64,000 nucleotides of DNA from Candidatus Woesebacteria bacterium RIFCSPHIGHO2_01_FULL_38_10 (GCA_001792215.1 MGGC01000033.1:2527-66526), one strand, 5' to 3'. Numbered from the stretch's first letter, positions 19,699 through 36,221 are shown. A program made the numbers and translations. The notes: generated by a model from the sequence alone, not told the origin.

Positions 19699-19772
19699 TG
19701 CCCGGTCGGCTAAAGGTAGGCCAGATGGCTCTGGACCATCTAATCCACGTTCGAATCGTGGCTGGGCAGCCA
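19699..19772 (+). tRNA. tRNA-Gln, anticodon CTG, with an encoded CCA end.
   Basis: Manual cloverleaf. Acceptor TGCCCGG/CTGGGCA (U1-A72, one G-T wobble), D stem GGCT/GGCC, anticodon stem GATGG/CCATC with loop CTCTGGA (anticodon CTG), T arm CCACG-TTCGAAT-CGTGG, discriminator G73, then CCA. U1-A72 and G73 are known tRNA-Gln identity features. Confidence 0.85.
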
Positions 19773-21344
19773 AGTAGGACGAGAGGGTCGCAAAGACCCC
19801 TTTTGGGTTGATTTATCGGGCAATTCGTTAGGTTCGAAAATCTTCGCTCCATTTTTTGCCAAATTAGCCACTTTCGAACCGTTAGTCTCAAGCACTGCAT
19901 TGTGTATCAGTTTGAAGGCTTTGGAATACTCGTAAGCCAGAACTCCTTGGGTTAGGGTCATGTTAGTAAATACCAGATTGATAAGTCGTCTTTGTTCTTC
20001 CAAAAGGTGGCATTCTTTGGCTCGCAGGTAGATTTCTTTGGCTCTCTGGGAGAGTTCATAAAGGTTAATCCCCAAATCAAAGTGGTTATTCTTGGCTTTG
20101 GTATGTTTCTCAATCGCTGCCACAATGTCTGCCTTCTCTTGGGTATATTGCCTGAATTTCTGGTCATAAAAGGCTTTGGTGATCTTTTCATCCAGTTTGT
20201 CGTCATACAGGCGGTCTAAGCGCTTCTCAACCTGCGCCAGGCGGATTTGTAGTTCTTTGAGGCTGCTGGTTTCGTATTCAGTGGCATCCTGATGGCTTTC
20301 TTTGAGAGCCTTTTTAAGCCATTCGGCAATATGGCTGTTTTTTAACTGTAGTCCTTCAAAGCCTGTTAATAGCTGGTTCTCAATCACATCCTCTCTTGTC
20401 CATTTCTTCTGGGAGCAGTTGCGGTAGTGATTACAATGTCCATAGATAATGTTCTTGTGAATTTCCCAGGTGACCGTGCCTTTACACTCGGCGCATTTGA
20501 GTAATTGCTTAAAGAGAAACATATGTCTATTTATTTTAGGTGTATTTTTACCAGCCAGCACTAACTGTATCTTATCAAAAATCTCCTGACTTATTAAAGG
20601 CTCATGTTTGCCCTGATAAATCTCTCCGTTCCACCTGATCTTACCGATGTAAAACGGGTCTTTGAGAAGTTGATGGACACGGCTTTTGTAGATTCTGCCT
20701 CCTGTTGACGAGCGAAGTCCCGCCTCAAACATTAAATCAGCCAGTTTTTTGACCGAGCAGTCTCCTTCTGAATACTGTTCAAGGAATCTGCTTATAAGAG
20801 GAGCGGTGATTTCATCCTGGACATGGGTTTTATGTCCACGCTCACCAACGGTTTTATATCCTGGCAGTGGTCGGCAAGGTAACCATCCCTGTGACAGCTT
20901 CTCCTTTTGCCCCTTCTTTACTTCCTCGGATAAGTTATCAATGTAGTTTTTGGCAAAGATAATGCGCACACCCCAATTGAGTTTGTCTTGGGAGCGGGAG
21001 TTTTTGTGGAGGATAAGGGAATCTTTGACCAGATGGACTTGGCGTTCTTCGTCCTCCTCCAGCCATTCGTCGATCATCACCGCATCTTTAAAGTTTCTGG
21101 TTAAGCGGTCAACCTTCTCGCAAATGATAATTTTAATGTTGTTTTTCTTAACATACTCCGTCATGGATGAGAAGATCTCTCGTTGTTTCCTCCCGCTTGC
21201 CGATTCAGAGATGGAGAAGATTTTAGTCACTCCAAAGACCAGCTTCTCGGCGTAGCCCTTGAGTAGCTTCTCCTGGGCTGGCAGTGAGTAGCCTGTTTCT
21301 TCTTGTTCTCGACTTGATACTCGGCAGAGCAGGACAGCTTTCAT
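19740..21344 (-). CDS. Large serine recombinase (integrase).
   Basis: 534 aa. N-terminal resolvase/invertase catalytic domain with the Ser nucleophile (LLCRVSSREQEETGYSLPAQ), a recombinase domain, a zinc ribbon (CAECKGTV...CNHYRNC) and a coiled-coil. Its last 30 nt overlap the 3' half of tRNA-Gln on the opposite strand. Confidence 0.9.
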   Translation of the reverse strand: MKAVLLCRVSSREQEETGYSLPAQEKLLKGYAEKLVFGVTKIFSISESASGRKQREIFSSMTEYVKKNNIKIIICEKVDRLTRNFKDAVMIDEWLEEDEERQVHLVKDSLILHKNSRSQDKLNWGVRIIFAKNYIDNLSEEVKKGQKEKLSQGWLPCRPLPGYKTVGERGHKTHVQDEITAPLISRFLEQYSEGDCSVKKLADLMFEAGLRSSTGGRIYKSRVHQLLKDPFYIGKIRWNGEIYQGKHEPLISQEIFDKIQLVLAGKNTPKINRHMFLFKQLLKCAECKGTVTWEIHKNIIYGHCNHYRNCSQKKWTREDVIENQLLTGFEGLQLKNSHIAEWLKKALKESHQDATEYETSSLKELQIRLAQVEKRLDRLYDDKLDEKITKAFYDQKFRQYTQEKADIVAAIEKHTKAKNNHFDLGINLYELSQRAKEIYLRAKECHLLEEQRRLINLVFTNMTLTQGVLAYEYSKAFKLIHNAVLETNGSKVANLAKNGAKIFEPNELPDKSTQKGSLRPSRPTWLPSHDSNVD

Positions 21345-21390
21345 AGGTTTTTGTTGCTAACACAACACATAAATGAAACTTCAAGTAATA

Positions 21391-21993
21391 TCAACTTGAA
21401 CTATCATCTTTGTTGTCCTCTAACTGTTTTTTATTAAATTCCATTTCTAACTTTGTTATTTCCTTTGACAATTTTTCCTCTTCTGGGGTAAGGGGTTTTT
21501 GCTCTGCTTCGTCAATGCCTCCTACTATCTGATGTTTGCCGATTGATTCTCCAAATTCTGTCCTGTGCATTTCCCATAATGCTTTGACTTCCTGGACAGT
21601 TGCTGGCTCGCCTGCCTGCATTTGCTTTTTTAATGCCTGCAGTTTACTCCAGAATGCTTCCGTGATCAGATATGCTCTTTTCTGCCTGATTTGAGTTGAC
21701 TTCTTTTTCAAGCTCTCCAAGTCTTCTGTTAACTTCTTATCTGCCCGTTTAATCCACTGGTATTTAACCGACCAGCGTTCAATCGTCCTTTCTGAGGGTA
21801 AATTCCCAAGTTTAGTGCCAAAAATCACCGACAACTCTCCTACAGGATTCCGACATATTTGCTGCCATGCTTGGATCAGCTTGGAAACACTTCCTACTTC
21901 GCAATAAAGGAGGAATGCAGTATATTGACTTTCTGTCTCTCCAGGCATCTTTGAAGTTATTAGTTTTTCTGGTTGGTCACTTATTTTGTTCAT
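21391..21993 (-). CDS. Hypothetical protein (200 aa) in the recombinase operon.
   Basis: ORF closely packed with the neighbouring minus-strand genes. No motif recognised. Confidence 0.5.
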   Translation of the reverse strand: MNKISDQPEKLITSKMPGETESQYTAFLLYCEVGSVSKLIQAWQQICRNPVGELSVIFGTKLGNLPSERTIERWSVKYQWIKRADKKLTEDLESLKKKSTQIRQKRAYLITEAFWSKLQALKKQMQAGEPATVQEVKALWEMHRTEFGESIGKHQIVGGIDEAEQKPLTPEEEKLSKEITKLEMEFNKKQLEDNKDDSSS

Positions 21994-22204
21994 GTTTTTT
22001 TATCCTCCTGTAAAATATCTGGTCAATCTTATTAGCTGCCCTAATTCGTTCTCCCATAGGCAGCGATTCGTCGTCGGCTTTATTAAGATGTCTTTCAAAA
22101 ACTGCATAACTTCTTGGATTCCAAGAGCTATAAATTCCTACTCTCAATAAAAGAGATCGAGCTTGTTTTCTTTCTAACTTTGTTAACAATTCTCGATGTT
22201 TCAT
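21977..22204 (-). CDS. Hypothetical small protein (75 aa).
   Basis: ORF overlapping its neighbours by a few nucleotides, a typical operon arrangement. Confidence 0.4.
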   Translation of the reverse strand: MKHRELLTKLERKQARSLLLRVGIYSSWNPRSYAVFERHLNKADDESLPMGERIRAANKIDQIFYRRIKKHEQNK

Positions 22205-22560
22205 GGTTGTTTTGTTTTTGAAACTTGTTTATTAAAAATCTTGTCTACTTTCTCCCTAAATTCCTGATACTTTTCTGGCGATACTGGTTCATATGGCGCT
22301 TCGGTTGCTCTTCCTGGAAGTGTCTTAGAATCTTTAAGAAATCTTCTCTCTCGATAAAAATCAGTAATATAAGGAATGGCAATCGTAAATGTTTGAAACA
22401 CAATTGCCCCACGGTCACCCCTTGCCATTGCTTCCTGAACTAACCTGGCTTGATTTTTCGACAGCTGATACTCCCTCTTTGAAACCGTGATAACTGTCCA
22501 AAGCTCCTCAAAATCATCGTCATTTAATGTGCCTGGCGTCAATTCCTCTTTTGCTGACAT
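22201..22560 (-). CDS. Hypothetical protein (119 aa).
   Basis: ORF showing translational coupling (overlapping start/stop). Confidence 0.45.
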   Translation of the reverse strand: MSAKEELTPGTLNDDDFEELWTVITVSKREYQLSKNQARLVQEAMARGDRGAIVFQTFTIAIPYITDFYRERRFLKDSKTLPGRATEAPYEPVSPEKYQEFREKVDKIFNKQVSKTKQP

Positions 22561-23242
22561 GTTCGCTCGCCTCCTTTCTGATCTGTATTGCGTCTCGTTT
22601 TACAAAATTCCATAGGGTTGCCAACCAATTTTTTCGAACCTTACCAGTTGATTCGTGCCAATTCACCATGTCGTCATATTTGCTCATAACAAAGGCAAGC
22701 GAAACCTGATAACGCTGCGCTGTATCCTGGAACTCAGCTTCGCCAAGGCTGGTAATGTCAGAATACTTTCCTTTAAGAGGAACTAAAACTTTCTCTTTAT
22801 TTATTTCTCTTTCAGTATCTGAAGAAATCTCTGAAGTAGTCTCTGGGATAGATTGTTGGTTTTCTTCAAATAAGTTTGTGGAATTTCCACAAACAAGTTT
22901 GCTGATATTCCCCAGATTGAGTTTGAAATGCCGTTTTGCAGGTATACCTTTTCGTTTAACTTCAACGAGTTTTAGATTTTTAATTTTCTGAATTGCCCCA
23001 TCCTGTTCATACCTTGAAAGAGCAGTTTCTTCCTCAATCTCGTCGATAGTTTTATAGATCCACTCTGGGTTTTGACCTTTTCCCCACCAGTATAAAAGTT
23101 GTGATAACAACAATCCTGCCTTTACCGATCCTATTGCTTTTGCTAATAAAGGATTGAAGGCTATGGGTTTGATACTTAGAACTTCCAACAATTTCTTGTT
23201 GTAGTTCGGACTACTGGTTTTATGTGTTTGGTTATTTTCCAT
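22520..23242 (-). CDS. Hypothetical protein with an N-terminal winged-helix region reminiscent of plasmid/phage replication initiator or replisome-organiser proteins.
   Basis: 240 aa. N-terminal segment LLSQLLYWWGKG...IDEIEEETALSRYEQDGAIQKIKNLKLVEV resembles RepA/DnaD-type wHTH domains. This is a weak call by inspection only. Confidence 0.35.
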   Translation of the reverse strand: MENNQTHKTSSPNYNKKLLEVLSIKPIAFNPLLAKAIGSVKAGLLLSQLLYWWGKGQNPEWIYKTIDEIEEETALSRYEQDGAIQKIKNLKLVEVKRKGIPAKRHFKLNLGNISKLVCGNSTNLFEENQQSIPETTSEISSDTEREINKEKVLVPLKGKYSDITSLGEAEFQDTAQRYQVSLAFVMSKYDDMVNWHESTGKVRKNWLATLWNFVKRDAIQIRKEASEHVSKRGIDARHIK

Positions 23243-23411
23243 ACGGTTTACTTTTATTTAGGCAACTTGTTTTCTTCTCTATCTGAGCCAAAGTTTCAAA
23301 ATATCCTAAAAGCGCAACACCCATCTTTGTAACCTCTTGCATGGTTAAATTGAGGCGAAAATCCTCCTCAAGTATTTTTTTCAGTTCCAGTAATAAAGAT
23401 TGGCTGATCAT
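23235..23411 (-). CDS. Candidate small ORF (58 aa, below the ORF-track cutoff).
   Basis: Minus-strand ATG at 23411. Translates MISQSLLLELKKILEEDFRLNLTMQEVTKMGVALLGYFETLAQIEKK... and overlaps the start of the 22520..23242 gene by 8 nt. Confidence 0.2.
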
Positions 23412-23418
23412 AAGTTTG

Positions 23419-23730
23419 CTACAATTTCTGTTGCCACAGCTTTTCTTTCAAACTTTTGATAACGGCAACAGCTTTCCTAAAATCGACCATTAAATCGGGG
23501 GAATTTTCAGGGGAGAAGTTGAATTGTTGAAGGAGTTCTTTTCTCTGGGGAAAATCTCTGAAGATAAAAACAAACTGCTTGGAATTGTTCTCTGATTTCT
23601 TGATGCCTATAATCTGCCCACCCTTGAGGATCAAAAAGACCGAGGCATAAAAATTGACCGATAAGTAATTTTGGTTTATATTTGCATCAGACATAGGCCG
23701 TTGTTCGCAGCCCATAAAAAAGGACTGCAT
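23419..23730 (-). CDS. Hypothetical protein (103 aa), first gene of the minus-strand operon that ends with the recombinase.
   Basis: ORF directly upstream of the small ORF at 23411. Preceded by a repeat-rich non-coding region. Confidence 0.35.
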   Translation of the reverse strand: MQSFFMGCEQRPMSDANINQNYLSVNFYASVFLILKGGQIIGIKKSENNSKQFVFIFRDFPQRKELLQQFNFSPENSPDLMVDFRKAVAVIKSLKEKLWQQKL

Positions 23731-23758
23731 AACTCCAGCACACTGCCATTTTTTGCGT

Positions 23759-23892
23759 GTTGCTATCGTGCAGTCCGTTTATTGCGTCCGATTATGTCTG
23801 AAAAACCTCTTGCAGGAAAAAAGAGGATTTATGCTTGGCGTTTCGAAGATCCTGCGGCGTGTCCTTTATTGCGTAGTTGCTTTCGTGCGGTC
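23759..23892. repeat. Imperfect repeated motifs, candidate iterons or operators.
   Basis: ttgctatcgtgcagtcc at 23759-23775 matches ttgctttcgtgcggtct at 23876-23892. (g)tttattgcgt at 23776-23786 matches tttattgcgt at 23864-23873. Confidence 0.35.
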
Positions 23893-24246
23893 TTGCTGTC
23901 CGAATCCTATTGCTTCACTAATTCCGATTAAAGGCAGATGTGCCTTCTATAAGTAATTCTTACAGAATTTATTCTGATAGTCAAGGGGTAGTGAAAAACC
24001 CTCAAAATTGATAGAATATAAGCATAAAGCCTAAACCCTTTTGGGGCATGGCTAAGAAAACCGATCAAGGTAGGAAGCTCCTCGTCAGAGCACCTTGATC
24101 GGTCATATCCCGAAAGGGGTATGGGTAGTCGAAAGGCTATCGCTGGCGGGGAGCTTTTTGTTTGGATTTGACAATCTCCCCGACACGAAGTTAACATGCA
24201 ACACTCAAGGCTAAATTATCGGTTTATGTCTGAGGGGAGGTGAAAA

Positions 24247-25119
24247 ATGAAAATGACAAATAAAAATAAGTCTAATTTTCTACCTGTTATCCTTATCCTT
24301 GCCATAGTTGCCATTCTTGCTGTAGTTTTAGCCCCTCGCATGGTTAGTCAATCAAAGATTGCTCAGACCTTGCAATCCAGCGCCAAGGACAAAGAAGTTG
24401 CAGAGCTTCTGGCTACGATGAGCAAGAACCCAAATAAGGACTCACAGGAGTATAAAGAAGCTCGCCAGAAGTTTTGCCTTTTGACAGCCAGACCAGTAAA
24501 AGAGCGAGAAAAGGCAATCGCCAACATTCGTGAGTTTCTGGGTATACCTGACATCCCAGTGGAGTTCCTTTGTAGCAGGTTTGCGGGTAAGCCAGATGAC
24601 AGCGAGACTGATTATAATAACCCAACCAGCGAACACTATGAAGCTGCACGCCACGGTTTTGAAGTCGATCCAAAAACCAACTACCTCATTGGAGTTGGAG
24701 ACGCCGAGCGCAGGACAGGAAGAAAAGAGGACGGCACCCGCTGGTCTGAACCACTGCCAGAGTATGATTACTCAGGTCGTTACAGCACACCAGAGGAAGT
24801 TAGAAAGGTCGCTGAGAAGTTTCTAACGGATCACAAGGACATTTTTGGTATTGATCTTACTAAGATGACCTACAAGTATGAAGGCACAAAGCCAGGCAAC
24901 TTCTTCATGCACTGGGAAGACAAAAGTGTCTCGGTAACCAAAGAGCATGAAGTCTGTGGGGATGTAGATCAGAACCGAGAGGGCGCATACCAAGACGCCA
25001 AAGGAGTATGGTGCATTAAGCAGAAGTCGACGAATTATCAAAGGATCGACATCGCTATCACCAACGGCGGGCAGATCATTATCTATCGCAACAACATCAA
25101 CGATCTGGACAAACTCTAA
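24247..25119 (+). CDS. Hypothetical membrane-anchored or secreted protein. GC-richer than the host genes.
   Basis: 290 aa with an N-terminal hydrophobic segment (FLPVILILAIVAILAVVLAP) and no recognisable domain. Confidence 0.55.
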   Translation: MKMTNKNKSNFLPVILILAIVAILAVVLAPRMVSQSKIAQTLQSSAKDKEVAELLATMSKNPNKDSQEYKEARQKFCLLTARPVKEREKAIANIREFLGIPDIPVEFLCSRFAGKPDDSETDYNNPTSEHYEAARHGFEVDPKTNYLIGVGDAERRTGRKEDGTRWSEPLPEYDYSGRYSTPEEVRKVAEKFLTDHKDIFGIDLTKMTYKYEGTKPGNFFMHWEDKSVSVTKEHEVCGDVDQNREGAYQDAKGVWCIKQKSTNYQRIDIAITNGGQIIIYRNNINDLDKL

Positions 25120-25152
25120 AACTGGTTGCTTGGTTTCTGCCAATATAAAAAC

Positions 25153-25296
25153 ATGAGAAGAAACTGGATGTTGGGATTTCTGGGGTTTCTTGGACTTCTG
25201 GGGATTCCAGGAATTTTAACCCAAGATTGGAAGGATATACTTTGGCTTCTTTGGCTTGCCTGGTTTACTTATTTTTTACCCCAAAAGAAAAAATAA
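25153..25296 (+). CDS. Candidate small membrane peptide (47 aa).
   Basis: ATG at 25153. Translates MRRNWMLGFLGFLGLLGIPGILTQDWKDILWLLWLAWFTYFLPQKKK, two hydrophobic segments. Below the ORF-track size cutoff. Confidence 0.25.
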   Translation: MRRNWMLGFLGFLGLLGIPGILTQDWKDILWLLWLAWFTYFLPQKKK

Positions 25297-25419
25297 CTCC
25301 CTACAGTCTGCAACAAATGCCCAACGAGGCTTCTGAAGCTAAATACAGGTGAAACTATGCCACCCCAGGCACGAAAGGCTGTTACGAGCCAACACAGGGG
25401 GTTACGATTAAGGCAATTC

Positions 25420-28284
25420 TCATATTCTGTATTTTTGTTGCCGTTTCTTGAAGGCTTCCGATCCACCTTCTAACACCTTAACCGCTCTATTCCGAATCTT
25501 AGGTTCTTCTATTGAACCTGAGATATACGAGATTTTTCCGTTGCTATCTCTATTTGCCAAAATAACCTGTTCTGCATCGCTGTTTATAACAACATTGCCG
25601 TTATTGGATACCAAGATAATCTGTCGATACTTTTTAGCTTCTCTTATAGAACCAATAAGCTCGTCCATAATAAATTCGTTATCCAGATGATCATCGTGTG
25701 AGTCGATAATGATAGGTTTGTCTCCTTCAGCTAAATAAATCTTAATAAGAACCGTAGCTTTTTGCCCCAATGAAAGTTTATTAACGCTCGTATTTTTGTA
25801 TTTAACAACGGGGATAACTGTAAGGTAGCTGTCATATAAGAATTTATAGAAATCACCAACACTTATCACACTTGAAGTTTTTATTTTACCTTTCAAGTCA
25901 TTACTCAAGTGCTCAAGCTCATCAACTAAAACATTCACCTTAGTTTCATCGCCAGCTGCAACTGCCTTATAGAATCCTACCAAACCCTTAAACACCCAAG
26001 TATCCCCATCTTCTGGTCTAACCATAACCTTCCTATTGTCGACTACATCCTCTGCATTTTTTAGTAATTGTTTAGAATTAAAATTAACTTCTGCAACAAA
26101 ATCAAGGTCAGAAAGCACCTGTGCCTTGTCTACAGAAAATAACGAGATAATCTCATCGTATTTTTTCTTCAACTCAAGAAATGCAGTAACCATTTGAGTA
26201 AACAGCTCTTTCCTTTCTTTGATCTCAGATGCAAGCTCTTTCTTCTTTTTCTTTAAGTTTTTATTTTCCTCCTCAGCTTTATTTAGAGCAATTTCCGTTT
26301 CCCTCTTTTTATCAAGTAGTGATGTGTGACTTCGTATTCCTGCTTCGAACTGATCAATATCTTTTTGAGCTTTTCCAATGTTCTCAATTGCCTTATTTAT
26401 CTCTTGCTCGATATAATCTAATTTCTCCTGCAATTTGTCTTTATCTGCGTATGCTAAATCAGGGAAGGATTCTGGGACTTTTAACTTCTTAAGCAATTGA
26501 TTGATTGAAGAAATGTAAGAGTTAAATGTTGGAAACTCTTGGTCAATAAAAGCAATCGCCTGTGTTAATTCCTCCTTTAACTTAATGAGCAGGTCTCTCC
26601 TGTTTTTTAAGTTTGCTATGGCTTCTTGCTTTCCTTTTGCGATTTTAACCTTTTTGCTATTCAGACTTTTCTCAAGTTCTGCAATTCTCTGGTTTATGTC
26701 TTTCAATCCTACCTTGAGCTGTTTTTCTTTAACCTTTGCTTTTTCGACAATTTCTGTTTTTGTCGCTTGCTCTGTTGACTCGATTGACTGTGACTTCTGT
26801 AGAATTTTCTGTTTAAGGTCACCAATCTTTGTCTGGATTTTTGAAAATTCGTATTTTTCTACTGAATTTTGTATCTTTGGACTTTGGAAAATTAAGTCAT
26901 TAACATACTCGTCAAGATCCGATTTCTCTCCAATATACTGTTCTAATTCCCCCTGGGCGATATAAGCAATTTGCCCCTCTTCAAAAAACGATAGGTCTGT
27001 AGCTTTTTTTGAAAATGTTGTCTTATCCTTGAAAGTTAACTCAGTTTTTAAGTCAGGGTTCTGATCCGAAATTCTCTTAATAAAAGAGTTCTCGTCGCCA
27101 GAATTAACTCTATCGATGTAACAGTTAGCAATCTGGTCAACAAAGGCTGTCTTACCAGTCCCTTTTCCTCCTGCTACTGCGACTAAGCCTGGATTAAGAT
27201 TTATATCTGTCTTGGCAATAGACAATTCGTCGTTAATTTTCGACTCTGTAATTTTTATCTGGTCGATTGTTAAATTACTTCTGGGTGGTATTGGGCAACC
27301 TGGTTGGATTGAAACTCTATCTTCTGGTTCATATAAAAGCTGTTTTAATCCTTCAAATGTTGGGTCTGCTTCTACCCAACAAAATCTCAAATCACAGGCA
27401 TCAGTCTTTTCACCACACTTATGTGTAGATACACCCCTTTTTGCACACGGGACTCCCACTTCATCAATGCAATGACTGTCTGATCCGTGTATACAAGATT
27501 TCAGAGTCTTAAACTCCTCTTTAAACTTCTTTTCACCTTCTTTATAGGGTTGTTTTCCAAGACACCACTGTATAGTTTTAGGATTAGAGGAAAAAACCAT
27601 ATCCGATTTCTGAAGAAGTCCTTTTCTCATAAGATGATCTTGACCATTCCAGTCAATCAAATTCGACAGTTCTTCGGGAAGAACAAGAAGATATTTTCCC
27701 TTGAAACGGCTATCTCCACTTAATAGCTCTGTTATTTCTTCATGGCTAACAACCGCATTCGATGCACCCAATTCCAGAGGGTTTCTTCCTTTGAAGAGTG
27801 CATGTTGAGATATAAGTTGTTTTCCTAAAACAGTTAAGTTGGATAGTTTTAATTTGCGACTCTCATCCTTGCTCTGGGGGTTACCTTCGTAATAAAAATG
27901 GAGATCATGTAGGAAATGTTCTTCTATATCTTGAGGAGATACTTCATCAGAAAAAATTACATGGTAATTTAGTCTTCGTGGATCAGTTCCGTCTTTTCTG
28001 CTTGAAATGACGCTGTTTAATCGAAACTCAATGTTCGGCAGAACCAACGAGATGTTTTTCAGTCTTCCTGCTTTTCTAAACTCCAGAATCTTCTTATATC
28101 CTTCTATTGAGAAGTAATCCGTTATTCCTACAGCAGCCAGATCAAGCCCCTCAAGTTTTTTAAGAAACTTATTCCAATCTGGCTCACCATTTGCCAGCTT
28201 AGGATATTTATTAGCGAGTATTGAAAGAGGACTGTGAACATGCAAATCCCACTTTCGCCATTCAGAACCTCTTGGATATTCCAT
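25420..28284 (-). CDS. PHP-domain phosphoesterase fused to an ABC/SMC-like ATPase with long coiled-coils, resembling the single-gene Ppl (PHP-like) anti-phage architecture.
   Basis: 954 aa. N-terminal PHP motifs (WDLHVHSP...AAVGITDY...). Walker A VAVAGGKGTGKTAFVDQ. Extensive coiled-coil. C-terminal ABC signature-like LSLGQK followed by Walker B PIIIDSHDDHLD. Confidence 0.7.
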   Translation of the reverse strand: MEYPRGSEWRKWDLHVHSPLSILANKYPKLANGEPDWNKFLKKLEGLDLAAVGITDYFSIEGYKKILEFRKAGRLKNISLVLPNIEFRLNSVISSRKDGTDPRRLNYHVIFSDEVSPQDIEEHFLHDLHFYYEGNPQSKDESRKLKLSNLTVLGKQLISQHALFKGRNPLELGASNAVVSHEEITELLSGDSRFKGKYLLVLPEELSNLIDWNGQDHLMRKGLLQKSDMVFSSNPKTIQWCLGKQPYKEGEKKFKEEFKTLKSCIHGSDSHCIDEVGVPCAKRGVSTHKCGEKTDACDLRFCWVEADPTFEGLKQLLYEPEDRVSIQPGCPIPPRSNLTIDQIKITESKINDELSIAKTDINLNPGLVAVAGGKGTGKTAFVDQIANCYIDRVNSGDENSFIKRISDQNPDLKTELTFKDKTTFSKKATDLSFFEEGQIAYIAQGELEQYIGEKSDLDEYVNDLIFQSPKIQNSVEKYEFSKIQTKIGDLKQKILQKSQSIESTEQATKTEIVEKAKVKEKQLKVGLKDINQRIAELEKSLNSKKVKIAKGKQEAIANLKNRRDLLIKLKEELTQAIAFIDQEFPTFNSYISSINQLLKKLKVPESFPDLAYADKDKLQEKLDYIEQEINKAIENIGKAQKDIDQFEAGIRSHTSLLDKKRETEIALNKAEEENKNLKKKKKELASEIKERKELFTQMVTAFLELKKKYDEIISLFSVDKAQVLSDLDFVAEVNFNSKQLLKNAEDVVDNRKVMVRPEDGDTWVFKGLVGFYKAVAAGDETKVNVLVDELEHLSNDLKGKIKTSSVISVGDFYKFLYDSYLTVIPVVKYKNTSVNKLSLGQKATVLIKIYLAEGDKPIIIDSHDDHLDNEFIMDELIGSIREAKKYRQIILVSNNGNVVINSDAEQVILANRDSNGKISYISGSIEEPKIRNRAVKVLEGGSEAFKKRQQKYRI

Positions 28285-28286
28285 AT

Positions 28287-30608
28287 TTATTTTTTATCAA
28301 TCTTATAAGCGCTGCTGATGATAGCGTCAAAACTGTTAATTCTGCTTACTGCTGTATGGGGCAGGAGTTTATAAATCCACTGCTTGTTGGTTGCTCCAGA
28401 GGCGATTTTACACCATTCTTCAGCTTGTTTTGCCTTCTCCAAGACCTCTGGGTCTTTTTTGTCGAGTTTACTTTTATCTTTAACCTCCACCAAGTAATTA
28501 GCGTCTTTTCTTTCAACAATAAAATCGGGGTTGTAGTTACCGTAAATATACTTAATCGGTAGTTGCCCGTTCCTAAGTCTCAACCAGCTCACTACAGATT
28601 TATCTCTTTCCAGAGAGTCCGCTAACAGTTTCTCCTGGGTTGAATCAAAAACATAGGCTGGGTAAACACTTTTGTCATATCCCTTGATGATGTTGCCTCT
28701 GGATTCTGCTTCGCTCACTTCGTCTTTATCCAATGGCACAGCCGAGACCTTTACGACTTTCAGATAAGGTTCAAACGGCAACTGCTCATCAAGAACTCCA
28801 AACTTGATTCTTGTTTGTTCTTGGAGCTTCTCCTGAAGCTGAGGCAGAATATCATTTAAGATTGTCTGTTCATGCAGTTTAACCAGTTTCGATAGCTCTT
28901 TTCCTGTTACCTGGAGTTGATCAAGGTAGTGTTTTACGATCTTTTGTAAGATTGCCTTGAAAGAGATGTCAAACTCGGACATCTCCAAGATAATCAACCT
29001 AACGATGCGATTAACAGGATTGATTTCTTCTTTGATCTCGACTTCTCCAGCGTCTTCTGTTTGTCTGGAAACAATGTCTGTCTTAACCATTCTTGGCTTA
29101 ATCTTCTTTAATTCCTCCAAACGCAACTTAATCGGGAAGAACTCCAGTTTATTGCTGGAATAAACTTTCGCTTCGACAGCAGGTATCTTGATCCAAAGTT
29201 TTTTATTACCTGTTGGTTTGATCTCAACAGTCTTTAATTCTTCTTTCTTTTCAGCCTTTTTAACCCCAATCCCCTCAGCCACTTCATGGGCAACCGCTAT
29301 CACTCTGGCAAAGTTGTCATGGGAGATAATGTCGAGCGAGTCAAGTTCCTCAACGCCTGAAAGCTCGCCAAACGGTAGCCTAAGCCCTCTGCCGATAGTT
29401 TGCTCGATCAAAGTCTTACTGATTGAAGCCCTGAAGGGGATAATGGTGTAGACATTTTTGACATCCCAGCCTTCTTTGAGCTTGTCAACATGAACAACAA
29501 TCTCGTTTTTGTTAACTGGATAAGGTTCTTCCAAACGGAGAAGCTGATTGATTGAATCTACCTCGCTCTCGCTGGTTACCAATAGAGTTTTGTCCTTGTA
29601 ATAGCCATCAAAGAAACTGTCGCTTTCGATTAGAGCTTTAACATCTTTGGCGTGCTGAATGTTCTTGGTCGTTAGGAGAGTAACTGGTAAAACAAACGGC
29701 AATTTATTGTTTTTGCAGTATGCCTCGATAAGTGCTTTCTTCTCTCGGTGTCTCCTGATACCATCCTCAAGTTTCACTAACTCAAGGTCACCTTTGTAGG
29801 TGTAGTCATCACTTCTGGCTATAACATACGGAATCTTGATATAACCACCCTTAGCGCCATTGCCGTTGTGTAAGCTCGCCAAAGCCTTCTTAGAATCGTT
29901 TATGGCGTCTCCAAGGGTGTAAGAATAAACCACATTGTCGCTAATGGGTGTTGCCGTAAATTCCAGTCCCAACTCTGGTTTGAGATGGTTGATCGCTTTG
30001 ATCGACTTTACTCCCCGATACCTGTGACTCTCGTCCATTAAAATAACCAGATCCTTTTGCTGGAGAAGCTCGGCAAAGCTCGACCCCAGTGTTTCTTGAT
30101 AGCGGTGGAATCTAAACTCGACATCGGTTCTTTCGTTGAAAATCTTCTGGATATTAAAAACATAAATGTTAACCGCATCAAAAAGCTGATTGCCAAAGTT
30201 AGCATAGGTGTAATTTTCTCCTGTAATCAAATTAAACATTGGGAAATCAGTCAAACCATCCAGGACATATTTTTTGCTTGAAGGGGTAAAGTTATCGATA
30301 GTTTTGGTATAAATGGTTTCTCCTGGAGTTAGAATGAAAAAGTCTTTTAGCCCCTTCGTGTAGTAAAGATAAGCGATCATGGCTGCCATCAGTCTTGTTT
30401 TCCCCACACCTGTTGCCAGAGCAAAAGTAAAGGAAGGAAACTCTGTATCAAACTTCACATTTCCCACCAACCTCGCCTCAATATCTTCCAATTTGTCCCT
30501 GTCTAACTTAACCCCAGAAAGGATTGCGTCTAATTTGATCAATGAAAGCTCTTGTGGCTTTCTCAGGCTTAATTCTTTGGTTAATTTTTCTGTTATGTTC
30601 ATGCTCAT
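28287..30608 (-). CDS. res: Type III restriction enzyme, Res subunit (SF2 helicase-like ATPase plus C-terminal PD-ExK endonuclease).
   Basis: 773 aa. Walker A ALATGVGKTRLMAAM, DEAH-like MDESHRY, C-terminal D...LVEVKDK nuclease motif. Translationally coupled to the Mod gene. Confidence 0.85.
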   Translation of the reverse strand: MSMNITEKLTKELSLRKPQELSLIKLDAILSGVKLDRDKLEDIEARLVGNVKFDTEFPSFTFALATGVGKTRLMAAMIAYLYYTKGLKDFFILTPGETIYTKTIDNFTPSSKKYVLDGLTDFPMFNLITGENYTYANFGNQLFDAVNIYVFNIQKIFNERTDVEFRFHRYQETLGSSFAELLQQKDLVILMDESHRYRGVKSIKAINHLKPELGLEFTATPISDNVVYSYTLGDAINDSKKALASLHNGNGAKGGYIKIPYVIARSDDYTYKGDLELVKLEDGIRRHREKKALIEAYCKNNKLPFVLPVTLLTTKNIQHAKDVKALIESDSFFDGYYKDKTLLVTSESEVDSINQLLRLEEPYPVNKNEIVVHVDKLKEGWDVKNVYTIIPFRASISKTLIEQTIGRGLRLPFGELSGVEELDSLDIISHDNFARVIAVAHEVAEGIGVKKAEKKEELKTVEIKPTGNKKLWIKIPAVEAKVYSSNKLEFFPIKLRLEELKKIKPRMVKTDIVSRQTEDAGEVEIKEEINPVNRIVRLIILEMSEFDISFKAILQKIVKHYLDQLQVTGKELSKLVKLHEQTILNDILPQLQEKLQEQTRIKFGVLDEQLPFEPYLKVVKVSAVPLDKDEVSEAESRGNIIKGYDKSVYPAYVFDSTQEKLLADSLERDKSVVSWLRLRNGQLPIKYIYGNYNPDFIVERKDANYLVEVKDKSKLDKKDPEVLEKAKQAEEWCKIASGATNKQWIYKLLPHTAVSRINSFDAIISSAYKIDKK

Positions 30609-32272
30609 ACTTTGAATTTCTTGAGTAAAACATCAGGAATTTTCCTGATTTCTACATTTTCTGGTAATTTAATTTTACTCGATATGGTTTTGGCATAAAC
30701 GATCAGATAATCGGCTGCATCGCCAACTTCTCGCAAGATAGCACTTACATAATCTTGGTTGAGATATTGCTCGGTTACATGAGCGATAGTCCTTCCTGAA
30801 ACGCCGTGTAGGGCATTATTTGGATTAAGGAGTTTGAATCCTTCGACCTTCAAAACTGCCCGAATAAGAGTGCCGTTATATACTTTTGGATTTAGAACTG
30901 TCAATCTCAAGTCGTCATCTGCTACAAAAAGACTGTCCCCCAATTCAAAATACTTAAATCCACTCCCGCCCCTCCAATTTATTTCCTTACTGATTCCAGT
31001 CTGATCCTTACCCTCGACAACCTCTTTTAATCGCTTTAAGCAGTGCGTTTTAACTTGATCGCTAAACTCAACCATGATCCACTTTCTTCCCATCTTGTGT
31101 GCAACTGCCCCTGTAGTTCCCGAACCCGCAAAACTGTCAAGAATCCAATCGCTCTCTTTTGATCCTATCTCTAAGATTCTCTTTATCAACTTTTCAGGTT
31201 TCTTGCCCTTGGGAAATTCCACATTCCCTTCTTTTGCTATTCCTTGCCAACCGATGTCGTCCCAGAAGTTCGTTAGAGGTTCAACAATGCCCTTCTCGCC
31301 ATTTACTGTCCTAACTTTATCCTCTAAAAAGAGGATTCTATTTCCTTTATAGAAAAACATATCACTAAAATCTTCTCGTTTAAGTAAGTAGACTTTTTCA
31401 CCATCACTTTTTGATTTATCGATAAGTTCTCTTGCTGCCTGACTCACTCCCTTATAGTTTGGTAGTGCAAAACGGATCACCCCTTCTGGATTACCCACCG
31501 CAAACTTAACAACCTCTTTTTCAAATACTTTACTGGACAGTTTTTTCCTTGCCTCTGATGCAGAAGAGTATCCCAGCTCAGTTGCAACTTTATCCGCTAA
31601 ATTGATAAATCGCCATTTTTGATAATCCTCTGAGTAGTTCTCGATGAACTTGCTGTATTGCCTATCATATTTTTCTCTTAACACATGTTGTTGTTTGTAA
31701 CGCCATTCAGTTTTGTCTTTGCAGTAAACGATGAGATATTCGGTCACATTTACAGGAGCTGGGTTTATTGCCTTATGTCCTGTAGCAGCACTCCTTTTTA
31801 TGCTTATATTAACTACACGATTCTTACGACCAAATATCTCATCAAGGAGAACGCTCAAATAGGCAACCTCCGTATCATCAATTTCAACAAAAATTACTCC
31901 ATCTTTTTTTAATAAGTCGTGAAGAAGTTTTAGTCTGTCCCTCATCATCGTGAGCCAGATAGAATGCTCTAAGCCATCATCGTAGTATTCAAACGCAGAA
32001 CCAGTATTGAATGGAGGATCAATATAAATCAGCTTAATTTTGTTTCTAAAATCTTGCAGCAATGCCTTAAGCGCTAATAGATTATCGCCCTTTATGAGCA
32101 TGTTTTCAGCATCTCTATCACCGTAAGCTGCCTTTTCGAGAAATATACGAGGTTCAGATACTCTGGGGTCTTTTTTGTCTACCCAAAGATATTTTTTCTC
32201 TTTGAGATCATAGTAAAGACTTTTGTCTTTGTGATACCAGGTTAATTCTAATTTTTTATCGTTTTTAGTCAT
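30605..32272 (-). CDS. mod: Type III restriction-modification Mod subunit (N6-adenine DNA methyltransferase, beta-class motif order).
   Basis: 555 aa. Motif IV IYIDPPFNTG precedes motif I DSFAGSGTTGAVA. Overlaps the Res start by 4 nt. Confidence 0.85.
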   Translation of the reverse strand: MTKNDKKLELTWYHKDKSLYYDLKEKKYLWVDKKDPRVSEPRIFLEKAAYGDRDAENMLIKGDNLLALKALLQDFRNKIKLIYIDPPFNTGSAFEYYDDGLEHSIWLTMMRDRLKLLHDLLKKDGVIFVEIDDTEVAYLSVLLDEIFGRKNRVVNISIKRSAATGHKAINPAPVNVTEYLIVYCKDKTEWRYKQQHVLREKYDRQYSKFIENYSEDYQKWRFINLADKVATELGYSSASEARKKLSSKVFEKEVVKFAVGNPEGVIRFALPNYKGVSQAARELIDKSKSDGEKVYLLKREDFSDMFFYKGNRILFLEDKVRTVNGEKGIVEPLTNFWDDIGWQGIAKEGNVEFPKGKKPEKLIKRILEIGSKESDWILDSFAGSGTTGAVAHKMGRKWIMVEFSDQVKTHCLKRLKEVVEGKDQTGISKEINWRGGSGFKYFELGDSLFVADDDLRLTVLNPKVYNGTLIRAVLKVEGFKLLNPNNALHGVSGRTIAHVTEQYLNQDYVSAILREVGDAADYLIVYAKTISSKIKLPENVEIRKIPDVLLKKFKV

Positions 32273-32274
32273 AT

Positions 32275-32937
32275 TTATAAATTCTCTGCTAAGAATCTCT
32301 GCACGCCTTCAAGCATAGCCTTAACATCTTCTGTTTTGTAATCCTCAAACTTACCATGATCAGCGCTGTCTCTTATTGCCTTCCACGCCTGAATTTGTTT
32401 TTGAAGCAAGCGACTATAAACTTCTTTATCTGCGAGCTTTGTATTGAGTGATCCTATGTCATCGCCCGATTTGACATCGACAGTATGTTTCTGTGCAATT
32501 TGTCTCAGTCCATTTTCTAATACTGCTCCCACCAAAGAAGCAGCAGAGTCTTTGTAGCTGTTATCCAAGAGATGCTGAGCCATTTCGATAAAATCTGTGA
32601 AGATTTCAGCGCTTACTAAGTTTCTTACTCTTGTTAAATAACCAAGTTCCAAATCTTCTTTTAATGCCGTGAGGATGCCAATACCGTGGTCTACATCGCT
32701 TGGGTGGGCTGTTTTTACCCCGTCAACAAAGTTTTTGTAGTAAGGGCTGTCTTCTCCACAAACCATAGATATAAAGTTTTGTGAGTTATTCTTCCATTCG
32801 TGAAATAGAGGGCTATTGACCGTGGAGGGTGCAATAACATGCTCCGAACTGTTATTTCTTTTTGTTGCTGCGACTTTTTGCCCTTTTTCGAGCAGTTGTC
32901 CAACCCGCTCAATTAGCTTATTTGTTGTTGTGTTCAT
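32275..32937 (-). CDS. Hypothetical protein with an Rx4H motif in a predicted helical C-terminal region, a possible HEPN-like (DUF4145-type) partner of the R-M genes.
   Basis: 220 aa. AIRDSADHGKF matches the HEPN Rx4-6H signature. Sits between the HTH gene and Mod. Call made by motif inspection only. Confidence 0.4.
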   Translation of the reverse strand: MNTTTNKLIERVGQLLEKGQKVAATKRNNSSEHVIAPSTVNSPLFHEWKNNSQNFISMVCGEDSPYYKNFVDGVKTAHPSDVDHGIGILTALKEDLELGYLTRVRNLVSAEIFTDFIEMAQHLLDNSYKDSAASLVGAVLENGLRQIAQKHTVDVKSGDDIGSLNTKLADKEVYSRLLQKQIQAWKAIRDSADHGKFEDYKTEDVKAMLEGVQRFLAENL

Positions 32938-33125
32938 ATTTTTATTTTCATTAGCTTTTCTAAATCTCCAGGTCTGTATCTTCGATCTCCTCGCTTGTTG
33001 AGTCTTATAGCCTTCAGTTTACCGCTTTTATCCCATCGTCTAAGTGTCTCCACATGCACATTTAACACCTCAGCAGCTTGTTTAATGGTTAGTAGTTTTG
33101 GTAACTCGTCTTTATTCTTCGGCAT
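32934..33125 (-). CDS. Excisionase-family / MerR-like helix-turn-helix DNA-binding protein (copy 1), first gene of the defence operon.
   Basis: 63 aa. LTIKQAAEVLNVHVETLRRWDKSGKLKAIR is the classic Xis/AlpA-type HTH. Overlaps the next gene by 4 nt. Confidence 0.75.
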   Translation of the reverse strand: MPKNKDELPKLLTIKQAAEVLNVHVETLRRWDKSGKLKAIRLNKRGDRRYRPGDLEKLMKIKI

Positions 33126-33173
33126 AACTCAACTTAATTATACAAAAATTAAAGGAAAAAGGGTATACTAACC
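33126..33173 (-). promoter_or_regulatory. Putative promoter for HTH copy 1 (TATAAT-like -10 element); conserved with the region upstream of HTH copy 2.
   Basis: Sense-strand sequence upstream of the ATG reads ...TTTTTGTATAATTAAGTTGAGTT-ATG. The same GTATAATTA(A/T)GTTGAG core occurs upstream of the 36221 start codon. Confidence 0.35.
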
Positions 33174-35563: not shown

Positions 35564-36031
35564 TCATCTGGGTTGATATCTTGCCTTAGGATCATCACCG
35601 TCAAACCTATTACTTGCTTCAAGTTTACAGGCAGACGCCAGGATTTCACTTGCGGTCGAAGTGCTGGTGTCAGCGGGAAGAATACAATGGAGTTGAATAC
35701 CTGTTTTACCCTCATATGTTGTGAGTTCAAAACCTGGGAAAATTGTTAATTCATAACCTTCTTGTTCCAGTTTTTTTGCTTCTGTGCAAAGGCTTTCCAG
35801 CACAGAGTCTTTGGGGTCATTAACAAAGTTGTGATCTGTAAGCGCAATAGCATCAAGTTTCTGCCTCCTGCAAAAAGCAACAAATTCTTTCGCAAAATCT
35901 TCTTTTGTATAGTCTTTACTTATTTTCTTTCCCTTCCAACGAGCATCAAGGCAAGTATGACAATGTAAGTCGCACTTAAAGAATTTAGCCTCTTTAAGCT
36001 GATATTTATCTGTGTTTGTATAGTCAGTCAT
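35564..36031 (-). pseudogene. Truncated PHP-domain gene, paralogous to the N-terminus of the 954-aa PHP-ATPase; the ATPase part is missing.
   Basis: 155 aa. KCDLHCHTCLD...AIALTDHNF...ELTIFPGFEL...GIQLHCILPADTS parallels WDLHVHSP...AVGITDY...ISLVLPNIEF...LNYHVIFSDEVS of the 25420..28284 protein. It is followed by about 380 bp with no ORF. Confidence 0.55.
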
Positions 36032-36221
36032 ATTTATTTTTCTTTAATAGATTCTCCAAATCTCTTGGGTCATAACGCCTATCGCCACGCTCGTTGACCC
36101 GAATGGCTTTCAGTTTTCCGCTTTTACCCCACCGTCTCAATGTCTCCACATGGACATTCAGCACTTCAGCTGCTTGGCGGATAGTTAACAGTTTTGGTAA
36201 AGTCGTCTTATTCTTCGGCAT
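36024..36221 (-). CDS. Excisionase-family / MerR-like HTH protein (copy 2), a near-identical paralog of 32934..33125.
   Basis: 65 aa. MPKNKTTLPKLLTIRQAAEVLNVHVETLRRWGKSGKLKAIRVNERGDRRY versus MPKNKDELPKLLTIKQAAEVLNVHVETLRRWDKSGKLKAIRLNKRGDRRY. The upstream promoter-like sequence is also conserved. Confidence 0.75.
   Translation of the reverse strand: MPKNKTTLPKLLTIRQAAEVLNVHVETLRRWGKSGKLKAIRVNERGDRRYDPRDLENLLKKNKYD

Follow-up and report, generated by a model that had tools for sequence, protein, structure and literature searches.

A predicted type III restriction-modification pair and a TrlF-family ATPase gene in a mosaic defence-gene array of a Candidatus Woesebacteria genome

A 64,000-nt stretch of DNA from Candidatus Woesebacteria bacterium RIFCSPHIGHO2_01_FULL_38_10 (hereafter the window) carries five minus-strand genes packed almost without spacing, and raises the question whether they form one defence system, a stack of separable ones, or a chance gathering at a recombination hotspot. 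The original prediction had described a composite operon of five genes with junctions of 2 to 4 nt, and the list of open reading frames reproduces its coordinates and spacing:

33137 to 33142, minus strand: TATAAT box, a candidate promoter of the array; perfect match, 11 nt upstream of the HTH start codon
33125 to 32934, minus strand: HTH protein, 63 aa; start codon at 33125
32937 to 32275, minus strand: HEPN-like protein, 220 aa
32272 to 30605, minus strand: Mod, 555 aa
30608 to 28287, minus strand: Res, 773 aa
28284 to 25420, minus strand: TrlF, 954 aa

From the HTH gene onward, the first and third junctions are overlaps of 4 nt and the second and fourth are gaps of 2 nt, and position 33173 is the final base ahead of a divergent SDR ORF. 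The TATAAT box and its surroundings are kept between the window and the sister locus L001, and the 51-nt segment from 33169 to 33119 is 90% identical to positions 2899-2949 of L097. The box may serve as the promoter of the array and would yield a near-leaderless transcript. A search for TGnTATAAT did not match it; the candidate promoter is a plain TATAAT with TG directly before it. Within the array, internal sigma-70 promoters and terminators were not seen beyond chance, with counts at or below shuffle expectation and hence uninformative either way. Because of the 2- to 4-nt junctions and the lack of internal signals, the five genes probably form one transcript. All five domain assignments were correct when checked with Pfam, PADLOC and NCBIfam profiles. 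Together with the TATAAT box just upstream of the HTH gene, these matches uphold the description of a composite, co-directional array of defence-type genes.

Type III restriction-modification (R-M) systems methylate host sites and cut unmodified invader DNA; their hallmarks are the hemimethylation of an asymmetric site and an ATP-dependent cleavage that needs two inversely oriented unmodified sites. The window Mod matches N6_N4_Mtase (PF01555, 6.4e-41) and, over residues 5-553 of 555, the PADLOC model MTase_III (PDLC03636, 8e-129). Its motif order, with DPPF at 85 and then FAGSG at 381, indicates a beta-class methyltransferase. Res matches ResIII (4.9e-21), RE_endonuc (3e-7) and PADLOC REase_III (1.4e-87), and the motifs GVGKT (66-70), DESH (192) and PD..EVK (694-710) indicate an SF2 helicase with a C-terminal PD-(D/E)xK nuclease. 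As in EcoP15I and EcoP1I, both proteins carry type III domains and motifs, and mod lies directly upstream of res in the same direction and overlaps it by 4 nt, which is the type III gene order. At the level of sequence the pair qualifies as type III R-M, and by family biology it would methylate host sites and cut unmodified invader DNA. It differs from the known systems in its short Res (773 aa versus 871-989 positions in the PADLOC REase_III models), which covers just part of the curated NCBIfam models, and in its neighbours, with the HTH and HEPN-like genes ahead of the pair and TrlF behind it. Relatives of Res, 70-95% identical, occur across CPR lineages and DPANN.

The 220-aa protein scores 21.1 bits against HEPN PF05168, just under the gathering score of 22, and 11 of 20 members of its family match this model (best 3.1e-7). 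It contains the Rx4H motif RDSADH at 189-194, in which R189 and H194 are invariant across the family, and its profile found no match among solved structures when compared by sequence with PDB chains. The clade is small (154 homologues, mostly CPR), and its genes occur with type III R-M, type IIG R-M or CBASS, or stand alone. The protein is likely an Rx4H RNase that might act as an accessory or abortive effector. A HEPN-MNT toxin-antitoxin identity was rejected, because a minimal nucleotidyltransferase gene adjoins the HEPN-like gene neither in the window nor in any of 10 sister contexts. Linkage of HEPN proteins to R-M has been published as multi-pronged defence, with at least 16 HEPN clades linked (Anantharaman et al. 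2013, PMC3710099). The window resembles these cases in encoding a small HEPN-like protein with an Rx4-6H motif beside R-M genes, but its clade falls just below the Pfam HEPN cutoff, lacks MNT and is also found with CBASS and a type IIG enzyme.

The 954-aa product of the last gene had been called Ppl-like. It falls in the catalogued TrlF family (NF045780; 482.9 bits versus a cutoff of 350, with residues 5-953 on profile positions 1-944 of 944), and the TrlF proteins of L014 and L097 also exceed this cutoff (501 and 612 bits, respectively). An N-terminal PHP phosphoesterase (approximately residues 11-275) is followed by an ABC/SMC-like ATPase head that a coiled coil of about 240 aa divides in two. 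The protein contains the motifs HVH (15-17), GSDSH (267-271), Walker A GGKGTGKT (372-379) and the signature LSLGQ (837), and an invariant Cys/His cluster at residues 264-302. A Pfam search on the window protein alone gave no PHP match, and domain-level modelling was required. In the model the N-terminal domain has the (beta/alpha)7 barrel of PHP proteins with HxH at its start and a GSDxH-type motif at its end; the confidence of the model is low over residues 200-335, a stretch that contains the last PHP motif as well as the Cys cluster. Foldseek matched the ATPase to JetC, Smc, MukB, Rad50 and RecN (5e-9 to 1e-4); by sequence, the TrlF profile gave at most a marginal Rad50 match and coiled-coil noise among PDB chains. 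PADLOC v2 holds no TrlF model, and partial matches to Ppl appear. These are restricted to the C-terminal 117 residues for the PADLOC Ppl model (1.9e-24) and are best over residues 832-950, about 120 C-terminal residues, for the curated Ppl equivalog NF042955 (104.8 bits versus a cutoff of 1000). Membership in Ppl was rejected on this cutoff, so that the earlier label stands for the architecture and not for the family.

Ppl was kept solely as an architectural analogue. The single-gene system of E. coli also joins an N-terminal PHP phosphoesterase and an ABC-type NTPase in one protein of about 900 aa, with co-linear C-terminal ABC motifs, whereas TrlF forms a separate family with the long coiled coil and the Cys/His cluster. 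Ppl combines a PHP exonuclease (3'-5', ssDNA) with an NTPase and senses 3'-OH DNA ends (PMC12904381), and it is likely a mechanistic analogue of TrlF. TrlF would then combine an ABC ATPase of the SMC/Rad50 kind with a metal-dependent putative nuclease of the PHP type, and by analogy with Ppl and Rad50-Mre11 it might sense DNA ends or abnormal DNA structures and degrade them. The literature searched contained no study of the TrlF ATPase family and no origin of its name (name matches concerned laser-fluorescence spectroscopy and tropolone-biosynthesis genes called trlF), and nothing on a PHP domain plus ABC ATPase linked to R-M or conflict systems. The family comprises 1526 clusters at 50% identity (E<=1e-30). 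With its size, its presence in bacteria and archaea and on plasmids, and its repeated occurrence in operons with three R-M types, TrlF is a priority for experimental testing.

At the head of the array, the 63-aa protein is of the HTH_17/MerR type (HTH_17, 3.7e-12) and also matches PADLOC mad1 (8e-14). Homologues with 79-95% identity head both TrlF-only and R-M cassettes, consistent with a role as operon-head regulator. Alternatively, the protein could be a recombination directionality factor. The likeness to mad1, a small HTH_17 regulator whose deletion has a limited effect on defence (10.1101/2023.03.30.534895), does not extend to the MADS system as a whole: the genes mad6, mad7 and mad8, defined as mandatory in the same study, are absent from the window, and a weak mad8 match (1.3e-3) lies on the TrlF coiled coil. 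MADS membership was therefore rejected, the generic mad1 regulator being the only real match.

The array adjoins tRNA-Gln and a 5.4-kb insertion with a serine recombinase and LOOT RNA. On one alternative reading, only the R-M genes would be defensive, TrlF being a housekeeping DNA-repair enzyme (a fused SbcCD/Rad50-Mre11 analogue) and the HTH protein the excisionase of the adjacent element. The SMC/Rad50-like fold of TrlF would fit this reading, as would the Cu-ATPase, CsoR and amidase genes that neighbour TrlF in Chloroflexi, the score of the HTH protein above the cutoff of the TIGR01764 'excise' domain (37.1 versus 28.8 bits) and the serine recombinase 4 kb beyond TrlF. However, TrlF is distributed patchily across bacteria and archaea, is enriched beside R-M genes, and occurs on at least 190 plasmids, where it stands alone inside defence islands; it is common on those of Klebsiella and E. 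coli. The last 4 nt of the HTH gene are shared with the gene that follows; near homologues stand first in the defence cassettes of L089 and L014, and the flanks examined there contain no recombinase. The recombinase and LOOT RNA belong to an insertion that is separable from the adjacent array and absent from L091; this also weakens the idea of one integrative island carrying the operon as cargo. We rate this combined reading of TrlF and the HTH protein as very improbable.

Comparison with sister loci illuminated how the array was assembled. The tract from 33103 to 28276 (HTH, HEPN-like, Mod and Res) is 88.9% identical at the DNA level to L096, a locus without TrlF, and the tract from 28295 to 25387 (TrlF) is 80.9% identical to L001, a locus with HTH-TrlF only. 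Two further features mark the inner junction and the 3' end of the array:

28276 to 28295, minus strand: mosaic breakpoint, the sole overlap of the L096-type and L001-type tracts, 20 nt at the Res stop and TrlF start
25321 to 25401, minus strand: conserved non-coding element of about 85 nt at the 3' boundary of the variable genes

The Res/TrlF junction, AAAAAATAAATATG, is the same as the HTH/TrlF junction in L001. Judged from these alignments, the array is a mosaic, a junction of two HTH-headed cassettes. An earlier version of this view, a type III block inserted into an HTH-TrlF pair, was revised, as the window HTH belongs to the L096-type R-M tract. If this is read correctly, the locus is a natural experiment in defence-operon assembly, with a 20-nt junction between the two cassettes and with each parental form still represented in sister genomes. 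The modules appear to be separately mobile: closer relatives of the R-M half lack TrlF, and closer relatives of the TrlF half lack R-M.

The mosaic bears directly on the idea of an obligate system whose five genes are subunits or steps of one machine. The 2- to 4-nt junctions would suit such a machine, the same locus was recovered, identical, from several samples, and HTH-Mod-Res-TrlF recurs in L014. Yet the halves have closer relatives apart and the breakpoint coincides with the boundary of two genes; the HEPN-like gene was found in none of the 79 surveyed TrlF loci and occurs elsewhere with CBASS or a type IIG enzyme; and both the order of Res and Mod and the type of ATPase differ among sister cassettes. 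One obligate machine is very improbable. As a coherent five-gene system, the original prediction did not survive the finding of closer relatives of each half (L096, L001), the 20-nt breakpoint and the 65 of 79 TrlF chains that contain no R-M gene.

Among sister loci, the flanks of this region are conserved and the cargo varies:

L001: HTH-TrlF
L002 and L004: HTH-TrlF-type II MTase-REase, the TrlFs 75% identical to that of the window
L096: HTH-HEPN-like-Mod-Res and five unknown genes without defence annotation
L097: Mod-Res (type III) and a divergent TrlF, 28% identical
L086 and L089: HTH-HEPN-like-Res-Mod and an OLD/AriA-like or AAA_13 ATPase in the place of TrlF
L014 (Saccharibacteria): HTH-Mod-Res-TrlF (type III)
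L098: the same Mod-Res pair without any ATPase

The region may therefore be described as a variable chromosomal defence-gene slot in a Woesebacteria-like (CPR) bacterium, which would be bounded by the conserved TATAAT promoter and the small HTH_17 gene at its 5' side and by the ~85-nt element at its 3' side. Behind the last cargo gene, copies of the latter with 77-88% identity occur in L002, L004, L096, L097 and L091. As a structured RNA the element found no support, with no Rfam match, a fold z-score of 0.0, one invariant 5-bp hairpin and no covariation. Such a slot might be nothing else than a recombination hotspot or 'genomic sink', an idea discussed in 10.1101/2024.01.29.577857, with no interplay of, or selection for, R-M and ATPase. 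The kept flanks with variable cargo, the five genes without defence annotation in L096, and the neighbouring serine-recombinase element and tRNA-Gln agree with pure co-location. The combination of R-M and TrlF, however, recurs independently: it occurs in other phyla, with R-M of other types, and with TrlFs of 28% and 45% identity. Within 10 kb on either side, moreover, the R-M genes are gathered in the same-strand chain of TrlF itself. We consider co-location alone an unlikely explanation.

This concentration was quantified across the 79 TrlF loci. In 14 loci, R-M genes belong to the chain of same-strand genes that contains TrlF. The partners are of types I, II and III, and on the same strand TrlF is most often accompanied by R-M families and HTH_17. 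Relative to the remaining +-10 kb flanks, R-M genes are enriched in the chain with an odds ratio of about 11 (Fisher test), a figure that counts non-independent genes, since R-M genes come as operons, and that is set against flanks and not a matched control defence gene. The recurrent pairing suggests a favoured combination, but could alternatively reflect a shared insertion hotspot without selection for it.

Restriction-linked ABC-ATPase nucleases are known in PrrC (EcoprrI) and RloC, the latter with a Rad50-like coiled coil (PMC2610378, PMC3458546). TrlF resembles them as an ABC ATPase fused to a nuclease-type domain and genetically linked to R-M, and its location in L050 and L078, with hsdM/S on one side and hsdR on the other, is that of prrC. 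It differs in its domain order (PHP then ABC, versus N-terminal ABC and C-terminal HEPN-type anticodon nuclease), in a coiled-coil apex without a zinc hook (no CxxC), and in a facultative linkage to R-M; no match to PrrC or RloC was found in the Pfam, NCBIfam and PADLOC profile searches. TrlF might accordingly be a back-up effector of the PrrC/PARIS type, latent on the R-M complex and unleashed by phage anti-restriction, in which case the pairing would be functional and directional. Guards of such kind have been published (PMC2610378; 10.1101/2024.01.29.577857), and the operonic distance of TrlF from type I, II and III R-M in 14 loci, its PrrC-like position in L050 and L078, and the OLD/AriA-like and AAA_13 ATPases that sister cassettes have at this place would be expected of a guard. 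Against this, chains with TrlF mostly contain no R-M gene, the plasmid-borne copies are solitary, those of Chloroflexi lie beside housekeeping genes, and L098 keeps the same Mod-Res without any ATPase. The partner R-M types are also unrelated, which makes a specific protein-protein latch unlikely, and we rate the guard function as improbable.

The explanation that we favour, with slightly better than even confidence, is a recombinant stack of layered, probably co-transcribed, separable defence modules. Each layer could act and move on its own, and together they would provide layered immunity. The two likeliest reasons for the pairing would be that R-M cleavage makes DNA ends that such nucleases attack, or that the nuclease covers phages evading restriction. 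Of the cooperative or layered module proposed originally, the layered part is retained, with R-M and an ABC-ATPase nuclease recurring under one HTH, interchangeable parts and the roughly 11-fold chain enrichment, and the evolutionarily coherent five-gene part is not. A stronger version would make TrlF a general restriction-linked amplifier within a true two-step system of R-M and ABC-ATPase nuclease under one HTH. The SMC-like ATPase would recognise DNA ends or stalled complexes that R-M enzymes of type I, II or III leave behind, and degradation of the cut invader DNA would then fall to the PHP nuclease. CPR cells may lack a RecBCD-type end-degrading nuclease, which is an assumption, and in that case TrlF would supply this missing degradation step. 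The second step would be interchangeable among TrlF, OLD/AriA-like and AAA_13 ATPases, and the slot flanked by the HTH gene and the ~85-nt element would be a dedicated cassette-exchange site, recombining at compact stop-NN-ATG junctions. This amplifier role is possible, though we hold it doubtful. In either case, TrlF/R-M loci offer a concrete system to ask whether stacked defence modules cooperate or merely co-reside.

The separable stack involves no new principle. HEPN with R-M, ABC-ATPase nucleases beside R-M and embedded defences have already been published (PMC3710099; 10.1101/2024.01.29.577857), and the arrangement is of a known kind, namely embedded or multi-pronged defence. In a study of guilt-by-embedding and HEC systems, ABC-ATPase/nuclease genes were the commonest embedded class in defence operons (Payne et al. 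2024, preprint; 10.1101/2024.01.29.577857). The window shares with these the nesting or appending of defence genes to other defence operons. That study, however, centred on Hma systems in cultured bacteria, whereas the present case concerns type III R-M in a CPR genome together with TrlF. The terminal ATPase of L086, in the position that TrlF takes in the window, shows weak matches to the HEC-01A and HEC-02A models.

The original prediction described five packed minus-strand genes, and the ORF listing contains them exactly as given (in gene order; L-numbers below denote comparison loci from other genomes):

33125..32934, minus strand: HTH gene, 63 aa
32937..32275, minus strand: HEPN-like gene, 220 aa
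32272..30605, minus strand: type III Mod gene, 555 aa
30608..28287, minus strand: Res gene, 773 aa
28284..25420, minus strand: TrlF gene, 954 aa

Neighbouring genes either overlap by 4 nt (HTH/HEPN-like and Mod/Res) or are separated by 2 nt (HEPN-like/Mod and Res/TrlF). Position 33173, initially taken as the end of the locus, immediately precedes a divergent short-chain dehydrogenase ORF, whereas the HTH start codon lies at 33125. A perfect TATAAT box (33142..33137, minus strand), conserved in L001, is located 11 nt 5' of this codon. In a motif scan of the array, no internal promoter or terminator signals exceeded the frequency in shuffled sequence (17 promoter-like matches vs 21.2 ± 4.9 and 11 terminator-like matches vs 9.0 ± 3.3). 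Thus, the single transcription unit proposed from the tight junctions is not contradicted, although such a scan is no proof of one transcript. Several metagenome assemblies, independent of one another, yielded this identical five-gene locus. A HEPN-like protein with 100% identity is on record for Candidatus Woesebacteria bacterium RIFCSPHIGHO2_01_FULL_38_10, which makes a CPR/Patescibacteria origin of the window most likely.

The first gene encodes an HTH_17/MerR-type protein that scores above the cutoff of the excisionase domain TIGR01764 and is similar to PADLOC mad1. This protein most likely regulates the array promoter; close homologues head cassettes of differing content. Deletion of the related mad1 had a limited effect on defence (10.1101/2023.03.30.534895). 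The second product falls slightly under the Pfam HEPN cutoff (21.1 vs 22 bits), but 11 of 20 members of its family match this model (best 3.1e-7), and the RDSADH motif contains two residues invariant in the family, R189 and H194. The protein probably acts as an accessory RNase of the Rx4H type, which agrees with the published linkage of many HEPN clades to R-M in a "multi-pronged defence" (PMC3710099). The HEPN-like gene is independently mobile. It adjoins type III Res-Mod genes in L086, L089, and L091, lies 3' of an MmeI-like type IIG enzyme in L090, overlaps Cap15 of a CBASS operon in L092, is solitary in L087, L088, and L093, and occurs in 0 of 79 surveyed TrlF loci. At the sequence level, the third and fourth products are a complete type III R-M pair, as first proposed. 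Mod matches N6_N4_Mtase and, over its full length, PADLOC MTase_III (8e-129), with DPPF at 85 preceding FAGSG at 381; Res matches ResIII, RE_endonuc, and PADLOC REase_III (1.4e-87) and contains the GVGKT, DESH, and PD..EVK motifs. The pair should work as a type III R-M system. Relatives of the ~770-aa Res, 70-95% identical, are found in DPANN archaea and several CPR lineages, and L098 has this family in a bare Mod-Res pair.

The 954-aa protein, originally called Ppl-like, is a TrlF member and not a Ppl member. Over its entire length it matches the curated NCBIfam equivalog "TrlF family AAA-like ATPase", at 482.9 bits against a cutoff of 350, whereas its Ppl match reaches 104.8 bits against a cutoff of 1000 and is confined to the C-terminal ~120 residues; Ppl is retained as an analogue. 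Between the PHP and ABC domains lies a Cys/His cluster (residues 264-302, window 27379-27495), in which C264, C280, H288, C290, and C297 are invariant in TrlF relatives down to 51% identity, and C302 is invariant among the 13 sequences of an N-terminal alignment and almost so in an alignment of 27. Structure models fail to resolve this cluster (pLDDT below 50); it is a probable metal-binding module. The TrlF family comprises 1526 representatives at 50% identity (E<=1e-30) from many bacterial and archaeal phyla. In a plasmid collection, at least 190 records, mostly from enterobacteria, match TrlF over at least 80% of its length; these copies are annotated TrlF by PGAP and located inside defence islands. 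No paper on the TrlF ATPase family was found in the literature searched.

Comparison of related loci revealed that the array is a mosaic. The tract 33103..28276, spanning the HTH, HEPN-like, Mod, and Res genes, aligns continuously with L096 (88.9% DNA identity), where five unrelated unknown genes come after this four-gene set and TrlF is absent. The TrlF tract (28295..25387) is 80.9% identical to L001, which contains an HTH homologue (79% identical), then TrlF directly, and nothing else. The two homology tracts overlap solely at 28295..28276, and AAAAAATAAATATG, the junction of the Res stop and the TrlF start, recurs without change where the HTH stop meets the TrlF start in L001. Thus, for either half of the array, a closer relative exists in which the other half is missing. 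An obligate five-gene machine would account for the tight packing, but with both halves found apart it is highly improbable.

The genes at the position of TrlF in L096 (7411-11302) are co-directional, encode proteins of 337, 210, 115, 327, and 288 aa, and have no Pfam, NCBIfam, or PADLOC matches; judged by position, they are candidates for a novel defence cassette. The L001 record (contig CAZOVJ010000002.1; 16S gene starting at 21307) is labelled as an uncultured Gammaproteobacteria MAG. It shares the layout of HTH-TrlF, LOOT RNA, serine recombinase, and tRNA-Gln with the CPR-like window at ~80% DNA identity, and may carry a wrong bin label or reflect an element that crossed phyla.

Combinations of R-M genes with TrlF or other ATPases recur in several arrangements:

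L097: Mod-Res (Res 92% identical to that of the window), then a TrlF-family protein (611.7 bits, 28% identical to that of the window)
L014 (Saccharibacteria): HTH_17, type III Mod, Res, and TrlF (501 bits), tightly packed
L002 and L004: HTH, TrlF (75% identical to that of the window), type II MTase, type II REase (5.9e-61)
L086: HTH, HEPN-like, Res, Mod, then an OLD/AriA/GajA-like ATPase
L089: HTH, HEPN-like, Res, Mod, then an AAA_13/SMC_N ATPase

Among 79 genomic TrlF loci, 57 have partners, defined as same-strand neighbours within 150 nt. The commonest Pfam families among these 142 partner proteins are ResIII (9), Eco57I (7), and HTH_17 (7), followed by N6_Mtase (6), N6_N4_Mtase (6), and Methylase_S (5). 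R-M cluster genes account for 26 of 162 genes in TrlF chains (runs of closely spaced same-strand genes) vs 17 of 1018 elsewhere in the ±10 kb flanks, an odds ratio of 11 that is indicative only, as the genes counted are not independent. The coupling of R-M and TrlF suggested by the window thus recurs with types I, II, and III, but is facultative and its halves are separable: R-M genes share the TrlF chain in 14 of 79 loci (10 of 47 with full flanks). Pure co-location in a hotspot would suit the varying cargo between conserved flanks, but we consider it unlikely beside the independent recurrence with divergent TrlFs and other R-M types. In the remaining loci, TrlF is solitary or beside housekeeping genes. 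Such neighbours, together with the excisionase-domain score of the HTH protein, could suggest a housekeeping repair function for TrlF next to an excisionase; given the R-M partners and the plasmid defence islands, this explanation is barely plausible. In L050 and L078, TrlF is inserted between hsdM/S and hsdR, a placement like that of prrC in the EcoprrI locus. A PrrC-like guard would fit this position, but considering that most TrlF chains lack R-M genes and that the partner R-M types are unrelated, it is quite improbable for the array.

Sequence, fold, and synteny are what the present analysis covers, and the mechanism outlined here is inferred or drawn from family knowledge. By analogy with Ppl, TrlF is best regarded as a putative self-contained sensor-effector, with an SMC/Rad50-like ATPase engaging DNA ends or structures and a PHP metal-dependent nuclease. 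E. coli Ppl is summarised as a PHP 3'-5' ssDNA exonuclease with an NTPase, which responds to nucleotide depletion and 3'-OH ends by becoming active (PMC12904381). On balance, we lean towards layered defences that are probably co-transcribed yet separable, with a favoured pairing of R-M and ATPase. The pairing would be favoured either because restriction creates ends that a TrlF-type nuclease could attack, or because the nuclease handles phages escaping restriction.

The arrangement was initially regarded as uncharacterised. This applies to the particular module combination, which is new, but the embedding of defence genes in one another, most commonly of the ABC-ATPase/nuclease class, has been described (10.1101/2024.01.29.577857), as has the association of HEPN with R-M (PMC3710099). 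Also new are the mapping of the junction, whose two parental forms both still exist, and the recurrent same-operon link of the TrlF family with R-M types I, II, and III. Searches for MADS, PrrC/RloC, and HEPN-MNT memberships identified none of these systems.

The array is flanked by the dehydrogenase gene and a conserved non-coding element, beyond which a further segment follows:

25401..25321, minus strand: ~85-nt element directly 3' of the TrlF stop codon
about 19.95-25.31 kb: ~5.4-kb segment with a convergent 290-aa gene, a LOOT RNA, small ORFs, and a large serine recombinase
24028-24141, plus strand: LOOT RNA (Rfam RF03000, 86.9 bits, gathering score 46.4)

The ~85-nt element trails the last cargo gene, whatever its identity, in L002, L004, L096, L097, and L091 (77-88% identical). 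It has no Rfam match, significant fold, or covariation, and might serve in recombination, bind a protein, or signal a 3' end. The recombinase ORF (19740-21344, minus strand) overlaps tRNA-Gln with its 3' end. In L091, the ~85-nt element directly abuts the tRNA-Gln spacer and the rest of the 5.4-kb segment (about 19948-25313) is absent; the spacer (14615-14833) is 86% identical to window 19728-19947, the last ~70 recombinase codons, and no gene is called there. Thus, the recombinase/LOOT segment adjoins the array as a separable insertion and is not its vehicle, and the recombinase ORF seems, from this alignment, to run across the junction of its element into flanking sequence. The LOOT RNA is full length in five loci (75-90 bits), in a common backbone segment adjoining the defence array, whose strand is the opposite one in every case (elsewhere L001 13722-13832, L002 17151-17258, L096 12445-12559, and L098 14670-14792). 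A family of serine-recombinase elements appears to carry this RNA as a constant part, and an overlapping 89-aa ORF (23928..24197) is probably spurious.

A second small HTH_17 gene (65 aa, 36221..36024, minus strand) overlaps a 155-aa ORF (36031..35564, minus strand), which in the gene calls of L081-L084 is followed by an extra 50-aa ORF; 36221..35564 may be another HTH-headed mini-cassette. Several sister genomes (L002, L004, L086, L096) carry a ~600-aa S26 signal-peptidase-domain gene 2-3 nt ahead of the HTH-headed array, and in L097 (2899-2949) the 51-nt promoter segment of the window (33119-33169) is found 5' of the S26 peptidase gene instead. This gene may be part of the variable cargo slot or mark a second hotspot.
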